DNA of 64,000 nt from Syntrophomonadaceae bacterium (GCA_018333865.1 JAGXSE010000061.1:25458-89457), one strand, 5' to 3'. Shown: positions 10,342 through 39,397, counted from the stretch's first letter. Numbers and translations are program-made. The notes: generated from the letters alone by a model not told the origin.

Positions 10342-11931
10342 TTGAGCGAAGACATTACCAGTCAATCGGTATGTCCGGGGGACACCCTTTACACCGTTCA
10401 ATCCGGAGATACAATTTTCTCTTTAGCGCAAAACTTTGGCACAACAGCAGAAGCAATCAGGTCAGTTAACCCAGGGATCGATTCCGATCGCTTGATAGCA
10501 GGCATGACCCTCTGTATGCCAATGATGCCGCCGTTGATCTGCCCGCCAAGCACATTTTGCTACATTATTCAAGCAGGTGACACTCTCTTTTCTTTGGCCC
10601 GGAGGTTCGGAACAACAGTGGAAGCAATACTACGGGTAAATCCAGGAATTCATCCTGAACATCTGCACATCGGCCAGGTCATCTGCATTCCAAGGGTAAC
10701 GCCGCCGGTAACCTGTCCGCCCAGCACCTTCCCTTATACCGTTCAGGCCGGCGACACTATCTGGAGTCTGGCCCAGCGGTTTAATACCACTGTAGCAGCC
10801 ATTATAGCAGTCAACCCGGGTATTGATCCGAATAATTTACAGATCGGCCAGATCATCTGCATTCCCAGGGTAATGCCGCCGGTAACCTGTCCGCCCAGCA
10901 CCTTCCCTTATACCGTCCAGGCCGGTGATACTATCTGGAGTCTGGCCCAGCGGTTTAATACCACTGTAGCAGCCATCATAGCAGTCAACCCGGGTATTGA
11001 TCCGAATAATTTACAGATCGGCCAGATCATCTGTATTCCAAGGGTAATGCCGCCGGTAACCTGTCCGCCCAGCACCTTTGCCTATACCGTTCAGGCTGGC
11101 GACACCTTCTGGAGTCTGGCCCAGCGGTTTAACACCACCGTAGCTGCCATTCAGGCCGCCAACCCAGGGGTAGACCCCAACAACTTACAGATCGGCCAGA
11201 TCATCTGCATCCCCAGGGTAACCCCGCAGCCTGGCCATTGCCCGGCAAGTACTTTTGCCTACACCATCCGGGCTGGGGATACTTTCTGGAATCTGGCCCA
11301 GCGGTTTAACACCACCGTAGCCGCCATTCAGGCCGCCAACCCGGGTGTTGACCCGAACAACCTACAGATCGGCCAGGTCATCTGCATCCCAGGCACAGGA
11401 CCCGCACCCGGCCATTGCCCGGCAAGTACTTTTGCCTACACCATCCGGGCCGGGGATACCTTCTGGAATCTGGCCCAGCGGTTTAACACCACCGTAGCTG
11501 CCATTCAGGCCGCCAACCCGGGTGTTAACCCCAATAACCTTCAAATAGGCCAGGTCATCTGCATCCCAGGCACAGGAACCGCACCCGGCCATTGCCCGGC
11601 AAGTACTTTTGCCTACACCATCCGGGCCGGGGATACCTTCTGGAATCTGGCCCAGCGGTTTAACACCACCGTAGCTGCCATTCAGGCCGCCAACCCGGGT
11701 GTTAACCCCAATAACCTTCAAATAGGCCAGGTCATCTGCATCCCAGGCACAGGAACCGCACCCGGCCATTGCCCGGCAAGTACTTTTGCCTACACCATCC
11801 GGGCCGGGGATACCTTCTGGAATCTGGCCCAGCGGTTTAACACCACCGTAGCCGCCATTCAGGCCGCTAACCCGGGTGTTAACCCCAATAACCTACAGAT
11901 CGGCCAGGTCATCTGCATTCCCCGCACTTAG
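10342..11931 (+). CDS. Cys-rich protein made of nine tandem LysM domains, with no signal peptide
   Basis: Nine units of [CP(P/A)STF-Y-(V/I)-(Q/R)-AGDT-(I/F)-W-(S/N)-LAQRFNTTVAAI...NPG...L-IGQ-ICIP]. TTG start 10 nt after AAGGAG. The N-terminus (MSEDITSQSV) is not hydrophobic. Confidence 0.9.
   Translation: MSEDITSQSVCPGDTLYTVQSGDTIFSLAQNFGTTAEAIRSVNPGIDSDRLIAGMTLCMPMMPPLICPPSTFCYIIQAGDTLFSLARRFGTTVEAILRVNPGIHPEHLHIGQVICIPRVTPPVTCPPSTFPYTVQAGDTIWSLAQRFNTTVAAIIAVNPGIDPNNLQIGQIICIPRVMPPVTCPPSTFPYTVQAGDTIWSLAQRFNTTVAAIIAVNPGIDPNNLQIGQIICIPRVMPPVTCPPSTFAYTVQAGDTFWSLAQRFNTTVAAIQAANPGVDPNNLQIGQIICIPRVTPQPGHCPASTFAYTIRAGDTFWNLAQRFNTTVAAIQAANPGVDPNNLQIGQVICIPGTGPAPGHCPASTFAYTIRAGDTFWNLAQRFNTTVAAIQAANPGVNPNNLQIGQVICIPGTGTAPGHCPASTFAYTIRAGDTFWNLAQRFNTTVAAIQAANPGVNPNNLQIGQVICIPGTGTAPGHCPASTFAYTIRAGDTFWNLAQRFNTTVAAIQAANPGVNPNNLQIGQVICIPRT
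10717..11928. repeat. Tandem 174-177 bp coding repeats (LysM units 3-9)
   Basis: 11404..11580 and 11581..11757 are identical over 177 bp by direct comparison. Units 3 and 4 (174 bp each) differ at about 6 positions, all synonymous. Confidence 0.9.
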
Positions 11932-27490: not shown

Positions 27491-27704
27491 TACTCACATC
27501 CCCCTTCAAAAAACTAGCAGAATAGCAACAGGCCTACTTTGTAATTATCACCACCTTAGAGATAATTTCCATTTTCACAAGCTTGCTCTTTTTATTCGTC
27601 AGCCCGGCCCCGGATTCCTTCTTCCGGCAGCAGGTTCCCTTGACAAACCTATTTCCGTTTCTGCTTAGCACTCCAGCTTTTCCGCCAATGGGAACGCACT
27701 CCAA

Positions 27705-33919: not shown

Positions 33920-34780
33920 TTATCCCCCCCGCATTTCTTTGAATCCCTCTCCCAAGGCCTCATGTACATTAGTAACAACCATGAAGGCCCGGGGATCTAT
34001 CCGGGCAACCAGATTTTTTAATTTAGTCACTTCCGGTCGGCTGACCACACATAAAAGGACTTCGCGACTGGTGCCGGTGTAAATGCCTCTGCCCTGCAAA
34101 CCGGTTGCCCCCCGGTCCATTTCCAGGAGGATGGCCTGGCCAATTTCTAAGTTTCGTTCGGAAATAATCAGGGCTGCCTTGAAATATCCCACGCCTTCCT
34201 GCACCAGGTCGATTACCCGGGCAGTTATAAAAAGGGATAAAAGAGCGTACAAGGCCAATTCCAGGGAGAAAACTAATCCGGCCAAAGCGATCACCAGACC
34301 GTCAATAACTACCAAGGCAAAGCCTGAACTAATTTTTACCCAATGGCGGGCAATCTGAGCTGCCAGGTCAGTACCTCCGGTAGTACCTCCGGCCCGGAAA
34401 ACCACCCCTAAACCCGCGCCGACCAGGATGCCGCCATAAATTGAGGCTAAAAGGGGATCTTCTGTAGGTGCCGCGACAATGGGTTTCAGGAGATCGATCG
34501 AGACAGACAATAGGATTGTTCCAAAAAAAGACTTGGCGGCAAATGCCCATCCCAGCTGCCTAAAGCCGATCATGAACAGAGGAATATTTAAAGCCAGCAT
34601 GGTCAGGCCCACTGGCAGGCCTGCCACATAAAAAATGATGGTTGCCAGCCCGCTTACCCCCCCGGGCGCGATTTTGTTCGGAATCAAAAAAACAGCCAGC
34701 CCGATGGCCAGCACAATACTTCCAAAGGCCACCATCAAGTAGTCCCATAGATGTTTAGCATATTCGGGTGATTTAATCAT
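33920..34780 (-). CDS. YitT-family membrane protein (DUF2179 C-terminal domain)
   Basis: Five or six TM helices with repeated GG(V/T)xG motifs (APGGVSGLA, GGTTGGTDL) and a soluble C-terminal domain. Confidence 0.85.
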   Translation of the reverse strand: MIKSPEYAKHLWDYLMVAFGSIVLAIGLAVFLIPNKIAPGGVSGLATIIFYVAGLPVGLTMLALNIPLFMIGFRQLGWAFAAKSFFGTILLSVSIDLLKPIVAAPTEDPLLASIYGGILVGAGLGVVFRAGGTTGGTDLAAQIARHWVKISSGFALVVIDGLVIALAGLVFSLELALYALLSLFITARVIDLVQEGVGYFKAALIISERNLEIGQAILLEMDRGATGLQGRGIYTGTSREVLLCVVSRPEVTKLKNLVARIDPRAFMVVTNVHEALGEGFKEMRGG

Positions 34781-34989
34781 TGTCTTCACTCCCAGTGCCT
34801 TTTTTCAGCCATAGTTTGCCTCCTCCGGAGATTAATAACCAGCTGATTTCTTTCGGCATTATTCGCCATTTTCCTTTTTTCCCAATTTGTTTTGGGAATC
34901 TGTCCTTTCACAGTAACCTTCCGGTCTTCATGCTAATATACTGTACTGTGGTGCGGATTGGGAAAAACTGATAAAGGAGGAAATTAAAA

Positions 34990-35085
34990 ATGGAAACTCA
35001 AAGCGGTATCCTTGGCGGGCTTTTAGGCGGCAATAGGCTGCTTTTAATCTTCTTGCTGATCCTTTTCCTGTTCGACTTCAAATAA
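34990..35085 (+). CDS. Unannotated 31-aa hydrophobic micro-protein METQSGILGGLLGGNRLLLIFLLILFLFDFK
   Basis: ATG lies 9 nt after AAAGGAGG. The last 15 shared residues are identical to the second micro-ORF, although 7 codons differ synonymously. Confidence 0.6.
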   Translation: METQSGILGGLLGGNRLLLIFLLILFLFDFK

Positions 35086-35254
35086 GCCTATCCGGAAGCA
35101 GGATGCATAAAAAGCATACCAGCATTAACCAATCAGGGGTGCCATCGGCACCTCTTAAAACTTTCTAACCGCTCAAAAAGTAACACCCTGGGCCAAAGCT
35201 AAATATAATGTTATAAAGCCATGGTCCAGCAATACTATGTGAGGAGGGTTTAAA

Positions 35255-35314
35255 ATGGCTAATCCGCGGCTCCTGTTGATCTTCCTGCTGATCCTGTTTC
35301 TGTTCGACTTCTAA
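35255..35314 (+). CDS. Unannotated 19-aa hydrophobic micro-protein MANPRLLLIFLLILFLFDF
   Basis: ATG lies 6 nt after GAGGAGGG. It is a paralogue of the 34990 micro-ORF and is followed by a strong hairpin. Confidence 0.6.
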   Translation: MANPRLLLIFLLILFLFDF

Positions 35315-35330
35315 TGATTACCCAAAAAGA

Positions 35331-35361
35331 CTGAGGGGATGCCGGCCTGGCACCCCCTCAG
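35331..35361. terminator. Hairpin between the micro-ORF (+) and the ferredoxin gene (-)
   Basis: CTGAGGGG-atgccggcctggca-CCCCTCAG, with T-rich sequence on the plus side. Confidence 0.6.
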
Positions 35362-35377
35362 ATCATATTTGGGATTC

Positions 35378-35626
35378 TTATTTGATGGCCTGGGTTGGGC
35401 AGACCCCCAGGCAGGCGCCGCACTCATTGCACTTTGCACCAATCCGGTAAAACCGGCTGGCCTTATCTGCCGGCCCTTGTTCCATGGGCCCAGTCTGATC
35501 CGCACCGATGTTCGGAGTCAGCTCTCCCACTATATGACAGCTATAACCGTCCAAAATAGCGTCCTCCCTGCAAACAACGGTGCAAGCGCCGCAAGCTATG
35601 CAGTCATCGGTTATTCTGTAGGGCAC
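35378..35626 (-). CDS. 2x[4Fe-4S] ferredoxin with a ~40-aa insert between the cluster motifs
   Basis: CIACGACTVVC and CNECGACLGVCP motifs. I place the start at GTG 35626 (MPYRITDDC), 6 nt after GGGAGGG. Confidence 0.8.
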   Translation of the reverse strand: MPYRITDDCIACGACTVVCREDAILDGYSCHIVGELTPNIGADQTGPMEQGPADKASRFYRIGAKCNECGACLGVCPTQAIK

Positions 35627-35777
35627 CCTCATCCCTCCCTTAAGAGGATGTTCGAAAAGTCCGCTCAAGCGTGTTCCATTTCGAACACTCACTTCAACCG
35701 GTCAGGGTTAGCTTCTGTCTCTTCATCTTGTTTTATGCCCGCAGAATGATCAAAATTCATGGATTTGTTTAAACGCC

Positions 35778-37448
35778 TCAAATACGGCCCGAACGGAAGA
35801 TAGCCCAGCATAACAGGGCAACCATCACTGAAGCCAGAATAAAGGAGACTTCCAAAAAGGGCAGGCCCCAAAGAAACACCCTGCCTCGCTCGGCACTGAG
35901 AGCAGTAGCAACCAAAAGCCCGGCCATTACTATGCTAAACGCCAGCAAGACTAAACTGAAAGAAAGCCTGTTCGCCATTTTCTCCATCTGCCGCATGACC
36001 TGGTCCAGGTTATGGTGGGAGAGGCCGAGAGAAAGGCGCCCTTCAACCAAAGCTGTTACAAGCCTGTCAATTTTGCGAGGGAATTCCAAGGCCATGCTGC
36101 TGTATTCACCCAGGTATTCCTCCGCCTGCCGGGCTAAAAATCCTGGCGCCAACCGGCGGCCCATCAGTTTCCCGGCCATGGGCTGTGCAATTTCTACCAT
36201 CGAAAGCTGGGGATGCAATTCCCGGATAATTCCCTCTACCGTGACCAGGGACTTGACAATCAATGCCAGCTCCGAGGGAATTCTCAACTGATGGATGAAG
36301 GCCAGGTCCAACAGTTCAACAAATACCTCCCCCAGCCGGATCTGCCCGAGAGGAAGGTCATAGTACCGTTCACTCAGGAGATCAACATCGCGCCGCAAGG
36401 CCCGGGTGTCCATGTCTGCACTAAGAATACCCATCCTGGCTAGGGCCCTGATCACCTGGGAACTGCTGCGGGAAGTAATGCCCAAAACCAGAGTCCCAAA
36501 ATGGATTTTCTGTTCTTCCGACAGCCGCCCGACCACACCAAAATCCAACAAAACCAGGGTTTGATCAGGCAAGACAGCCAGGTTGCCCGGATGGGGGTCA
36601 GCATGAAAAAAGCCATCCAGGAGAATTTGCTGCAAAAAAACTTCGATCAGCTTTTTTGCCACCCTGCAGCGATCAATCCGGTGATGATCAAGCTCATTCA
36701 AATTGTTAAGCTTTATTCCCGCCAGGTATTCCATGGTTAATACCCGGGCAGTGGTATATTGCCAGAAGGTTTCAGGAATACGAACCAGGTTTGCCCTGGC
36801 TAAGTTCTTTCGCAACCGGTCACTGTTGCGCCCTTCCTGAGTATAGTCAAGTTCTAATTTTATGGTTCTGGCAAACTCCTCCATCAATTCAACCAGGTGG
36901 TAAAACCTGGCTTTAGGTAACCTGTTTTCAGCCAATCTGGCCAGGTCAACCACTATTTCCAGGTCTACCTTGATGGACTGTTCAACACCAGGGCGGCGCA
37001 CTTTAATCACAGCCTGCCGGCCATCCGCCAGTTCCGCCCGGTGCACCTGGCCGATAGAGGCTGCCGCTAATGGCTCGGGTTCAACCCACCGGAAATCCTT
37101 TTCCCAGGAAGCCCCCAATTCATCCTGCATTATTTCCTTGGCTTCCAGAAACGGAAAAGGAGGCACCCGGTCCTGCAGTTTGGCCAGCTCCCTGATAACC
37201 TCCTGGGGCAAAAGGTCCCCCCTGGTGCTCAGCATCTGGCCTAGCTTGATAAAAGCAGGCCCCAACTCCTCCATGACTTGGCGAAGGCGGGCACCAAAAG
37301 ACAGCCTGTGCTTTTCCGGGTCTTTAGACTGCCAGGCCCAGGAAATCATTTCCCCTAACCCCATTTGGTCCAACAAATAACCGAAGCCCTGTCTGGCAAA
37401 AGCGTTCACAATCTGCCGGTACCGTTTTAGATGCAGATAACTGGCCAA
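35778..37448 (-). CDS. ABC1/UbiB-family atypical kinase with C-terminal TM helices
   Basis: AAASIGQVHRA, KVRRPG and FFHADPHPGNL motifs, plus two C-terminal TM segments. Confidence 0.88.
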   Translation of the reverse strand: MASYLHLKRYRQIVNAFARQGFGYLLDQMGLGEMISWAWQSKDPEKHRLSFGARLRQVMEELGPAFIKLGQMLSTRGDLLPQEVIRELAKLQDRVPPFPFLEAKEIMQDELGASWEKDFRWVEPEPLAAASIGQVHRAELADGRQAVIKVRRPGVEQSIKVDLEIVVDLARLAENRLPKARFYHLVELMEEFARTIKLELDYTQEGRNSDRLRKNLARANLVRIPETFWQYTTARVLTMEYLAGIKLNNLNELDHHRIDRCRVAKKLIEVFLQQILLDGFFHADPHPGNLAVLPDQTLVLLDFGVVGRLSEEQKIHFGTLVLGITSRSSSQVIRALARMGILSADMDTRALRRDVDLLSERYYDLPLGQIRLGEVFVELLDLAFIHQLRIPSELALIVKSLVTVEGIIRELHPQLSMVEIAQPMAGKLMGRRLAPGFLARQAEEYLGEYSSMALEFPRKIDRLVTALVEGRLSLGLSHHNLDQVMRQMEKMANRLSFSLVLLAFSIVMAGLLVATALSAERGRVFLWGLPFLEVSFILASVMVALLCWAIFRSGRI

Positions 37449-38277: not shown

Positions 38278-39397
38278 CTACCGGTGATCATGCCGGTTTT
38301 TTTGGGCTTGCTGGATTAAGTAAGCGGAAACAAAGGGATCTAAATGCCCATCCATTACAGCCTGAACATTGCCAACTTCCGCATTTGTCCGGTGGTCCTT
38401 GACCAGAGAATAGGGATGAAATACATAGGAGCGGATCTGGCTGCCCCAGGCAATATCCTGCTGCACACCCCTTATAGCAGACATTTCTTCCTCTTCCTGG
38501 CGCTGTTTTAGTTCCAGGAGTTTGGCCATCAGTATTTTCATGGCCGCATTCTTATTGGCATGCTGGGAGCGTTCGTTCTGGCACTGGACCACAATGCCCG
38601 TCGGCAAGTGGGTAATCCGCACTGCCGAATCTGTCTTGTTAACATGCTGGCCCCCCGCCCCCCCTGCCCGGAAGGTATCAATCTTGATGTCTTCAGGCTT
38701 AACCTCTACTTCGTCATCGGAAACAACTTCGGGCATCACATCCGCCGAAGCAAAGGAGGTGTGGCGCCGGTTGGCAGCATCAAAAGGGGAAATCCGCACC
38801 AGGCGGTGCACCCCTTTTTCCGCCCTTAAATAGCCATAGGCATTATGCCCCTTGACGAGGATAGTCGCAGACTTGATTCCTGCTTCATCCCCAGGCAGAG
38901 AATCTACCACCTCAACCTGATACCCGCGGCCCTCAGCCCACCGGGTATACATCCGCAAGAGCATTTCTACCCAGTCCTGGGACTCGGTCCCGCCGGCTCC
39001 GGCATGCAGGGTTAAAAAAGCGTTATAACTATCGTATTTCCCGCTTAAGAGCACCTCTAATTTCATCTGTTCCAGGGAAGCAAGCAGGCTGTTCACTCCC
39101 GCTTCAACTTCAGCTCCATGCTCTTCGTCCTCTTCCTCCAAGGCCATTTCCCACATCAGTTCCAGATCCTCCTGGCGCTGAACCAGGAGAAAATACTTTT
39201 CCACCCGCTGACGGATATCAGCCAGGTTCTGCAGAGTTACCTTGGCCTCCCCGGTATTCTCCCAGAAACCCGGCTGGGAGACTAATTCCTCTAGCTCCGA
39301 CATTTTTCTTTGCTGTCCGGCAATGTCAAAGAGAGACCCTCAGTTCTTCTAGCAATTCCCGGGCCATTTTTAAAACAGGTCTTAGATCCTTTAGCAT
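38278..39397 (-). CDS. prfB: Peptide chain release factor 2, requiring a programmed +1 frameshift
   Basis: Frame 0 reads ATG 39397 MLKDLRPVLKMARELLEELRVSL then TGA. Frame +1 continues as DIAGQQRKMSELEEL... into the 341-aa track ORF. SPF and GGQ motifs are present. Confidence 0.93.
39325..39331 (-). promoter_or_regulatory. prfB autoregulatory frameshift site CTT TGA C
   Basis: The minus strand reads GAGGGTCTCTCTTTGAC. This is the canonical CUU UGA C slippery/stop context with an SD-like GAGGG a few nt upstream. Confidence 0.9.

Follow-up and report, generated by a model that had tools for sequence, protein, structure and literature searches.

Twin micro-ORFs belonging to an unnamed family of peptides with a nearly invariant hydrophobic tail: candidate late sporulation genes in Clostridia-type Bacillota

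ORF1 and ORF2 are two micro-ORFs on the plus strand of the 64-kb stretch of DNA that we analysed (hereafter, the window). Both are housed in the 588-bp gap between a YitT-family gene (PF02588), which is divergent, and the gene for a 2x[4Fe-4S] ferredoxin (Fer4), which is convergent (Table 1). A preliminary description of the twin micro-ORFs had their coordinates right, and also the two flanking genes; the gap itself, put there at 590 bp, is marginally shorter. ORF1 is built from METQSGILGGLLGGN, a 15-residue tail, RLLLIFLLILFLFDF, and a final Lys. ORF2 consists of MANP and the same tail, and is a head-less member, the shortest, of the family to which both genes belong. The product of ORF2 thus ends in D-F, as had been proposed for both, whereas that of ORF1 ends in ...DFK. 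Proteins of fewer than 50 residues are routinely missed, and none of the six public assemblies inspected lists ORF2 as a gene. ORF1, which had also been taken to be unannotated, is in fact called in at least 24 public contigs (JGI, ENA, Logan), although only as a 31-aa hypothetical protein.

Table 1. Positions of ORF1 and ORF2, of their expression signals and of other features mentioned in the text; positions are those of the window unless another sequence is named.
Feature	Position	Strand	Description
ORF1	34990-35085	+	31 aa, product METQSGILGGLLGGNRLLLIFLLILFLFDFK
ORF1 promoter-like site	34913..34943	+	GTAACC (-35 region), 16 nt, AATATACTG (-10 region)
ORF1 Shine-Dalgarno sequence	34973..34980	+	AAAGGAGG, 9 nt before ATG; invariant in three-way alignment
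Hairpin after ORF1	35135..35155	+	GGGGUGCC-AUC-GGCACCUC type, 9-bp stem, weak U-tract next; region z = -2.6
ORF2	35255-35314	+	19 aa, product MANPRLLLIFLLILFLFDF
ORF2 promoter-like site	35180..35210	+	GTAACA, 16 nt, AATATAATG
ORF2 Shine-Dalgarno sequence	35241..35248	+	GAGGAGGG, 6 nt before ATG; conserved in alignment
GC-rich hairpin after ORF2	35329..35364		-31 kcal/mol, z = -4.8; almost invariant in alignment
Gene for multi-LysM protein	10342-11931	+	529 aa, nearly all of it about nine LysM repeats
45-aa ORF	about 27534-27671 (L080 2545-2682)	-	No Pfam match
Release factor 2 gene	38278-39395	-	PCRF and RF-1 domains
Frameshift site of release factor 2 gene	near 39327-39333		CTT TGA C
DUF421/YetF_N membrane protein gene	L108 9166-9909		About 2 kb past the right end of the window, same JGI contig
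Tandem family copies, PH28_bin88	L034 5314-6101		Four copies at the YitT-UbiB locus
Atypical family member, PH28_bin88	L016 3330-3587		Pro-rich head (PPSPPPVPPIIPPQP...), start uncertain
Atypical family member, PH28_bin88	L019 2646-2795		20-aa Pro-rich C-terminal extension after the tail
Family member P0001	L079 3072-3197		Logan SRR10029121 contig
Reductive-dehalogenase-like cluster	L079 5083-6873		VcrB/RdhB-type anchor, Fer4 protein, FMN_bind regulators

The tiny ORF of each gene is framed by signals of its own: a promoter-like site and a Shine-Dalgarno sequence stand ahead of it, with a 5' untranslated region of roughly 35-50 nt, and a hairpin follows. Judged from these signals, ORF1 and ORF2 are two independent, monocistronic transcription units. 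The strong Shine-Dalgarno sequences and their proper spacing are as previously given, and both of the hairpins that had been noted are real. The one downstream of ORF1 is probably the terminator of the ORF1 transcript; its stem is kept in a close relative (L082) and in the genome MAG053, unlike the sequence that leads from the stop codon up to it. The hairpin downstream of ORF2 is common to ORF2 and to the convergent ferredoxin gene on the minus strand, with a T-run on the minus-strand side. In the minimum-energy folds of the two messages (34973-35060 and 35241-35300), the purine-rich Shine-Dalgarno sequence pairs with the CU-rich Leu and Phe codons of its own tail. We rejected this pairing as a regulatory feature, the fold energies being no better than those of shuffled sequences (z ~0), and it is probably an effect of composition.

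The tail contains 7 Leu, 5 Phe and 2 Ile residues. AlphaFold models ORF1 as a single helix over residues 3-30, with a pLDDT of 84-90 over residues 11-30. The unbroken hydrophobic run between the invariant Arg and Asp residues spans only 12 residues, which is too short for a classical membrane-spanning helix, above all in the 19-aa ORF2. The composition of the tail, together with a hairpin after each ORF, would suit Leu/Phe/Ile-rich leader peptides of a transcription attenuator. The orientation of the genes effectively refutes that role: no co-oriented gene lies downstream, the gene that follows ORF2 being convergent, and most paralogs also precede convergent or unrelated genes. Moreover, an attenuator needs the codon content only, and not an invariant order of residues, and the fold analysis did not find an alternative pairing signal.

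Over the 15 codons that ORF1 and ORF2 share, comparison codon by codon bears out the seven nucleotide differences reported earlier, with no amino acid change. The pairs, ORF1 first, are AGG/CGG, CTG/CTC, CTT/CTG, TTA/TTG, TTG/CTG, CTT/CTG and TTC/TTT, so that 7 of 7 differences are synonymous. Since synonymous changes make up 24% of the possible single-base changes in these codons, such an outcome would have a probability of about 5e-5 if substitution were uniform. ORF1 and ORF2 are almost certainly real coding genes.

The tail is not confined to the window. When the YitT gene was used to fetch relatives, the same tail was seen in three copies in each of two related MAGs, and a degenerate DNA pattern for the tail was run against 185,579 species genomes, about one third of the matches being spurious (T-rich, low-complexity). 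A scan of metagenome DNA gave 44 stretches, among which the only true members are L040 and L062, both from one sample; we discarded the other 42 as chance matches in T-rich, low-complexity sequence, which arise because YTN also encodes Phe. At the protein level, a profile (HMM) search of 1.84 billion representative proteins found nine proteins, all of the tail family and all named "hypothetical protein" where the source gives a name, and an indexed search with a 45-aa paralog returned a single protein, P0001. A full-text literature search for the tail sequence found no paper with the motif. The preliminary description had been unable to place the peptides in a known family, and correctly so: no Pfam or NCBIfam model matches them. 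The tail family is therefore real, unnamed and narrowly distributed.

Altogether, the searches yielded 24 distinct copies. Besides the window, four uncultured Bacillota genomes, two metagenome contigs and one Logan contig carry the family, and a single genome has as many as eight copies. MAG053 has eight copies on six contigs and PH28_bin88 has six, four of them in tandem at the syntenic YitT-UbiB locus. UBA2598 has three, one with an I-to-V change in the tail, and UBA1874 has two with the divergent tail NR[VI]FLIFLLLLFFFDFDF.... The array at the YitT-UbiB locus is syntenic and varies in copy number, with four copies in PH28_bin88, two in MAG053 (L015/L001) and two in the window. MAG053 also carries an extra copy between the transketolase gene and ftsE; it is missing in the window, where the same gap measures about 105 nt. 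P0001 lies near a reductive-dehalogenase-like cluster (Table 1), which hints that some hosts of the family are organohalide respirers of the Peptococcaceae type.

Members of the family, mostly 19-54 aa long, start with M-[PAT]-E-x-Q-[SA] (alignment A1) and continue with a low-complexity head of very variable length, in which Gly accounts for 34%, Phe for 13%, Pro for 12% and Tyr for 6% of the residues. The head is followed by the tail, of consensus R-[LIM]-LLIFLLILFLFDF, and by 0-2 further residues ([KR][YW]). Three longer members, in PH28_bin88 and MAG053, are atypical or uncertain. Two atypical members of PH28_bin88 are listed in Table 1; the extension in L019 means that the tail need not stand at the C-terminus. 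All copies start with ATG or GTG and have a Shine-Dalgarno sequence. The ortholog of ORF1 in MAG053 is MPEIQSGGLGGLLGGNRMLLIFLLILFLFDFK, and that of ORF2 is a 34-aa protein (MPEVQSPGYYGPGYPYPIERLLL...), from which the window copy differs by an in-frame deletion of 45 nt. The close relative (L082, L084, L085) keeps the 19-aa ORF2 intact (MVNPRLLL...), with one A-to-V change.

The pattern of change among the copies shows that selection acts on the peptide. In a set of 18 distinct canonical DNA copies, comprising paralogs and orthologs, 14 of the 15 tail residues are invariant, and the sole residue that varies is L, I or M. At the DNA level the same copies diverge by a mean of 9.2 of the 45 nt in pairwise comparison, and their variable sites are distributed over the first, second and third codon positions as 8, 0 and 14. 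The eight varying first positions are all in synonymous Leu or Arg codons, except for that of the L/I/M residue. The other five frames are unconserved, with 15-17 distinct peptides each, many of which contain stop codons. The indels in the alignment of the window, L082 and MAG053, of 3 nt and 45 nt, are both in frame. At the protein level, purifying selection on the tail is extreme, and the head evolves by in-frame indels. Gene conversion, considered as the source of the identity of the tails, was rejected, because conversion would homogenise the DNA too and the copies differ at about 20% of the tail nucleotides. With its near-saturated synonymous variation, the family offers one of the cleanest signatures of peptide-level selection to be had from sequence.

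A 45-nt element that is repeated, with several copies per genome, could in principle be a repeat without coding function or a structured RNA, and a structured RNA had been raised at the outset as something that might explain the substitutions. The distribution of the changes over codon positions refutes both: changes fall at third positions, at first positions only where these are synonymous for Leu or Arg, and never at second positions. Nor do the messages have extra structure, their folds scoring z = 0.0 and +0.9 against shuffled sequences, and a search of Rfam at E <= 10 over 34500-35800 gave noise only. The conservation of a single frame among relatives, the presence of a start codon and a Shine-Dalgarno sequence in every copy, and the codon-position pattern all speak for the peptide, and the view that the peptide itself is selected, already voiced in the preliminary description, is strongly supported.

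Short, extremely hydrophobic products with a strong Shine-Dalgarno sequence, encoded by many dispersed copies, recall type I toxins of Firmicutes (of the Fst, TxpA or BsrG type), which are likewise intergenic, short, hydrophobic single-helix peptides. We consider it improbable that ORF1 and ORF2 code for type-I-toxin-like or other membrane-damaging peptides that an antisense RNA would keep in check, a role that had been suggested for them. At the ORFs we found neither a conserved convergent promoter nor an overlapping antisense element; the minus-strand promoter-like sites detected upstream of ORF1 do not overlap it, and conservation across the locus is lowest in the 3' flank of ORF1. The mRNA has no excess structure that would hide the Shine-Dalgarno sequence (z ~0) and no match in Rfam. 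Furthermore, the paralogous expansion to 2-8 copies per genome, the variable, low-complexity heads rich in Gly and the operon of three tandem copies are atypical for toxins, and the promoters of the tail family look to be of a sporulation type.

These promoters share the motif GTAAC(A/C)-N15-16-(C/A)ATAnnnT(A/G), placed about 85-180 nt ahead of the tail of each copy. A strict version, GTAACM-N15-16-MATANNNTR, derived post hoc and partly from the two window sites themselves, has exactly two matches in the 64 kb, one before each ORF, where 0.03 are expected. In the 34 loci scanned, every strict match falls in a locus with family copies, unlinked paralogs in other genomes included. The pattern AC-N16-18-[CAT]ATAnnnT is present at a consistent distance upstream in 21 of the 24 copies; of the three copies that lack it, two are internal to a closely spaced run of three genes in PH28_bin88 that probably forms an operon. 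Both boxes of the ORF1 site are kept in L082 and in the MAG053 ortholog, with a different spacer, and the ORF2 site is also conserved there; because the spacers are unrelated in sequence, it is the two promoter boxes themselves that are conserved. By motif resemblance, the family promoter would be of the sigma-K type (-35 AC, -10 CATAnnnTA). The pattern AC-N-CATAnnnTA has three other matches in the window, none of them convincingly upstream of a gene.

The -10 element begins with CATA in about 15 of the 21 copies, and both window sites have A in place of the consensus C at its first position. Moreover, the ORF2 site can also be read as sigma-A-like (GTAACA-18-TATAAT) and has 10 of 12 matches in a sigma-70 scan. 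These features would agree with small hydrophobic or membrane proteins unrelated to sporulation, expressed under a housekeeping or another sigma factor, for example as subunits associated with lipids or with a complex. The surroundings agree too, in that no sporulation genes were found in the neighbourhood or in the loci examined: tblastn with SASP, SpoIIID, SpoVT, SpoVS, SpoVM and sigma-E/K/F/G core queries detected none in about 700 kb of locus sequence, the neighbourhood in the window is of a housekeeping nature, and the 10 kb past its right end hold housekeeping genes and a DUF421/YetF-type gene. We nevertheless regard a function outside sporulation as rather unlikely. The conserved -35 element, GTAAC(A/C), lacks the TTG of a sigma-A -35, the prevalence of CATA at -10 points away from a housekeeping promoter, and heads rich in Gly, Tyr, Phe and Pro, in families of 2-8 paralogs per genome, mirror YjcZ and coat-like proteins. 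In addition, the copies adjoin unrelated genes in different loci and so have no conserved partner; for the same reason the earlier suggestion that the peptides modulate a membrane complex finds no supporting context.

The only hints of a spore-forming host are the DUF421/YetF_N gene and, inside the window, the gene for a multi-LysM protein (Table 1). The former is a weak hint, as a member of the DUF421 family is found in the sigma-G regulon of C. difficile (PMC3789822).

The closest parallel to the tail family is YjcZ of the Bacillaceae (PF09680 "YjcZ_2", TIGR01732 "tiny_TM_bacill"), a multi-copy protein (PMC8313275) that in B. subtilis has been assigned to the sigma-K regulon (PMC517825). Both families consist of tiny proteins (about 30-70 aa) with a Gly/Tyr-rich, low-complexity head of variable length and a near-invariant hydrophobic block, and both occur in several copies per genome. 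The genes of both families are monocistronic; each has a strong Shine-Dalgarno sequence and a terminator, and AC-N16/17-CATAnnnTA lies about 45-60 nt upstream of the start codon. The canonical yjcZ genes of B. atrophaeus and of the B. cereus group served as a positive control: there, too, AC-N16/17-CATAnnnTA precedes a strong Shine-Dalgarno sequence at the same distance. The tail family also shows the YjcZ type of architecture: its members, several to a genome, have fewer than about 70 residues and join a variable Gly/aromatic-rich head to a hydrophobic segment that is invariant.

The sequences themselves differ. In an alignment of 32 named YjcZ proteins (PF09680; alignment A2), a variable Gly/Tyr/Cys-rich head precedes the invariant hydrophobic block FALIVVLFILLIIVG; this core is missing in the tail family, where R[LIM]LLIFLLILFLFDF takes its place. 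The block of the tail family is bounded by an invariant Arg and an invariant Asp and stands at the very C-terminus, whereas in YjcZ a further short Gly/Tyr tail comes after the block. The heads of the tail family are Phe/Pro-rich and start with M-P-E-x-Q-S, and its hosts are uncultured Clostridia-type Bacillota, in contrast to the Bacilli that harbour YjcZ. When 17 family members were compared with Pfam and NCBIfam (hmmscan, E <= 10), neither PF09680 nor TIGR01732 matched; genuine YjcZ proteins do carry the PF09680 label in the precomputed annotation of the collection. Matches to Hanta_Gc_C, DUF347, TatA_Rickett and PsbH were dismissed as sub-threshold and driven by composition. Comparison of alignments A1 and A2 with hhalign gave a probability of 25% and E = 7.7e-4 over 18 aligned columns, which take in the Gly-rich segment and the first part of the hydrophobic block, and the HMM search of the 1.84 billion representative proteins found no sequences bridging the two families. 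True homology between the tail family and YjcZ is, in our estimate, doubtful. The tail family is best read, by analogy, as working like YjcZ and not placed as a member of it. A YjcZ-like tiny sporulation peptide is thus the best fit among the three roles offered by the preliminary description.

Other very small mother-cell peptides, SpoVM and CmpA, act at the surface of the forespore through hydrophobic or amphipathic helices, and in size and helical character they resemble what we propose for the tail family. SpoVM, an amphipathic 26-mer that is encoded by a single copy and depends on sigma-E, differs in having no Gly-rich head and no sequence similarity to the tail family.

An N-terminal part that varies, fused to a C-terminal one that is invariant, also recalls the core-plus-recognition-sequence logic of a RiPP or bacteriocin precursor with a C-terminal follower, and a hydrophobic helix followed by a basic residue is superficially like the C-terminal sorting domain of a cargo protein. 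Either identity seems to us very improbable, given that the neighbours listed are never common to different loci, and that those annotated include no modifying enzyme, dedicated transporter, sortase or rhombosortase-type gene. Moreover, the heads have no N-terminal signal peptide, and the 19-aa ORF2, which has no cargo to speak of, is conserved nonetheless.

With moderate confidence, then, we favour a role for the tail family in late sporulation, under sigma-K in the mother cell. Late in endospore formation, RNA polymerase containing sigma-K would transcribe both genes in the mother cell. As a hydrophobic helix, the tail would insert into a membrane or a hydrophobic layer of the spore envelope, or stick to it, and it would probably also make a specific contact, through self-association or with a partner, because every position is fixed even among paralogs. 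The tail may display or anchor the Gly/aromatic/Pro-rich head, which would be low-complexity material of the kind found in spore coats; the existence of the tail-only ORF2 would imply that the head is dispensable for at least one role. The tail family would then be the functional counterpart of the Bacillus YjcZ in a Clostridia-type lineage, and maybe a very distant relative of it. More tentatively, the 15-residue tail could be, in place of a generic membrane anchor, a dedicated assembly or targeting module, recognised by a specific partner or through self-association, which delivers diversifying Gly/aromatic-rich peptides to the spore envelope under sigma-K, in a new family either parallel to YjcZ or anciently split from it, with ORF2 as the minimal, tail-only unit.

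If the assignment to sigma-K is true, the YjcZ type of design extends beyond the Bacilli, and its recurrence in a second lineage would suggest a general solution in the construction of the endospore envelope. In any event, the tail-only ORF2 is a natural minimal construct for probing the invariant block.

Three other features of the window deserve mention. Multi-LysM proteins are often linked to the cell wall or to the spore cortex or coat, and the window codes for one, although nothing in the analysis connects it with the micro-ORFs. The 45-aa ORF (Table 1) is flanked by the genes for a CtpB-like S41 protease and a CCG/Fer4 protein; all public assemblies of the locus call it, and it is another small conserved gene. 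Finally, the release factor 2 gene has the classical programmed +1 frameshift site; a short upstream frame starts at ATGCTAAAGG, before this site, and owing to the frameshift the ORF list shows only the 341-aa downstream part of the protein.
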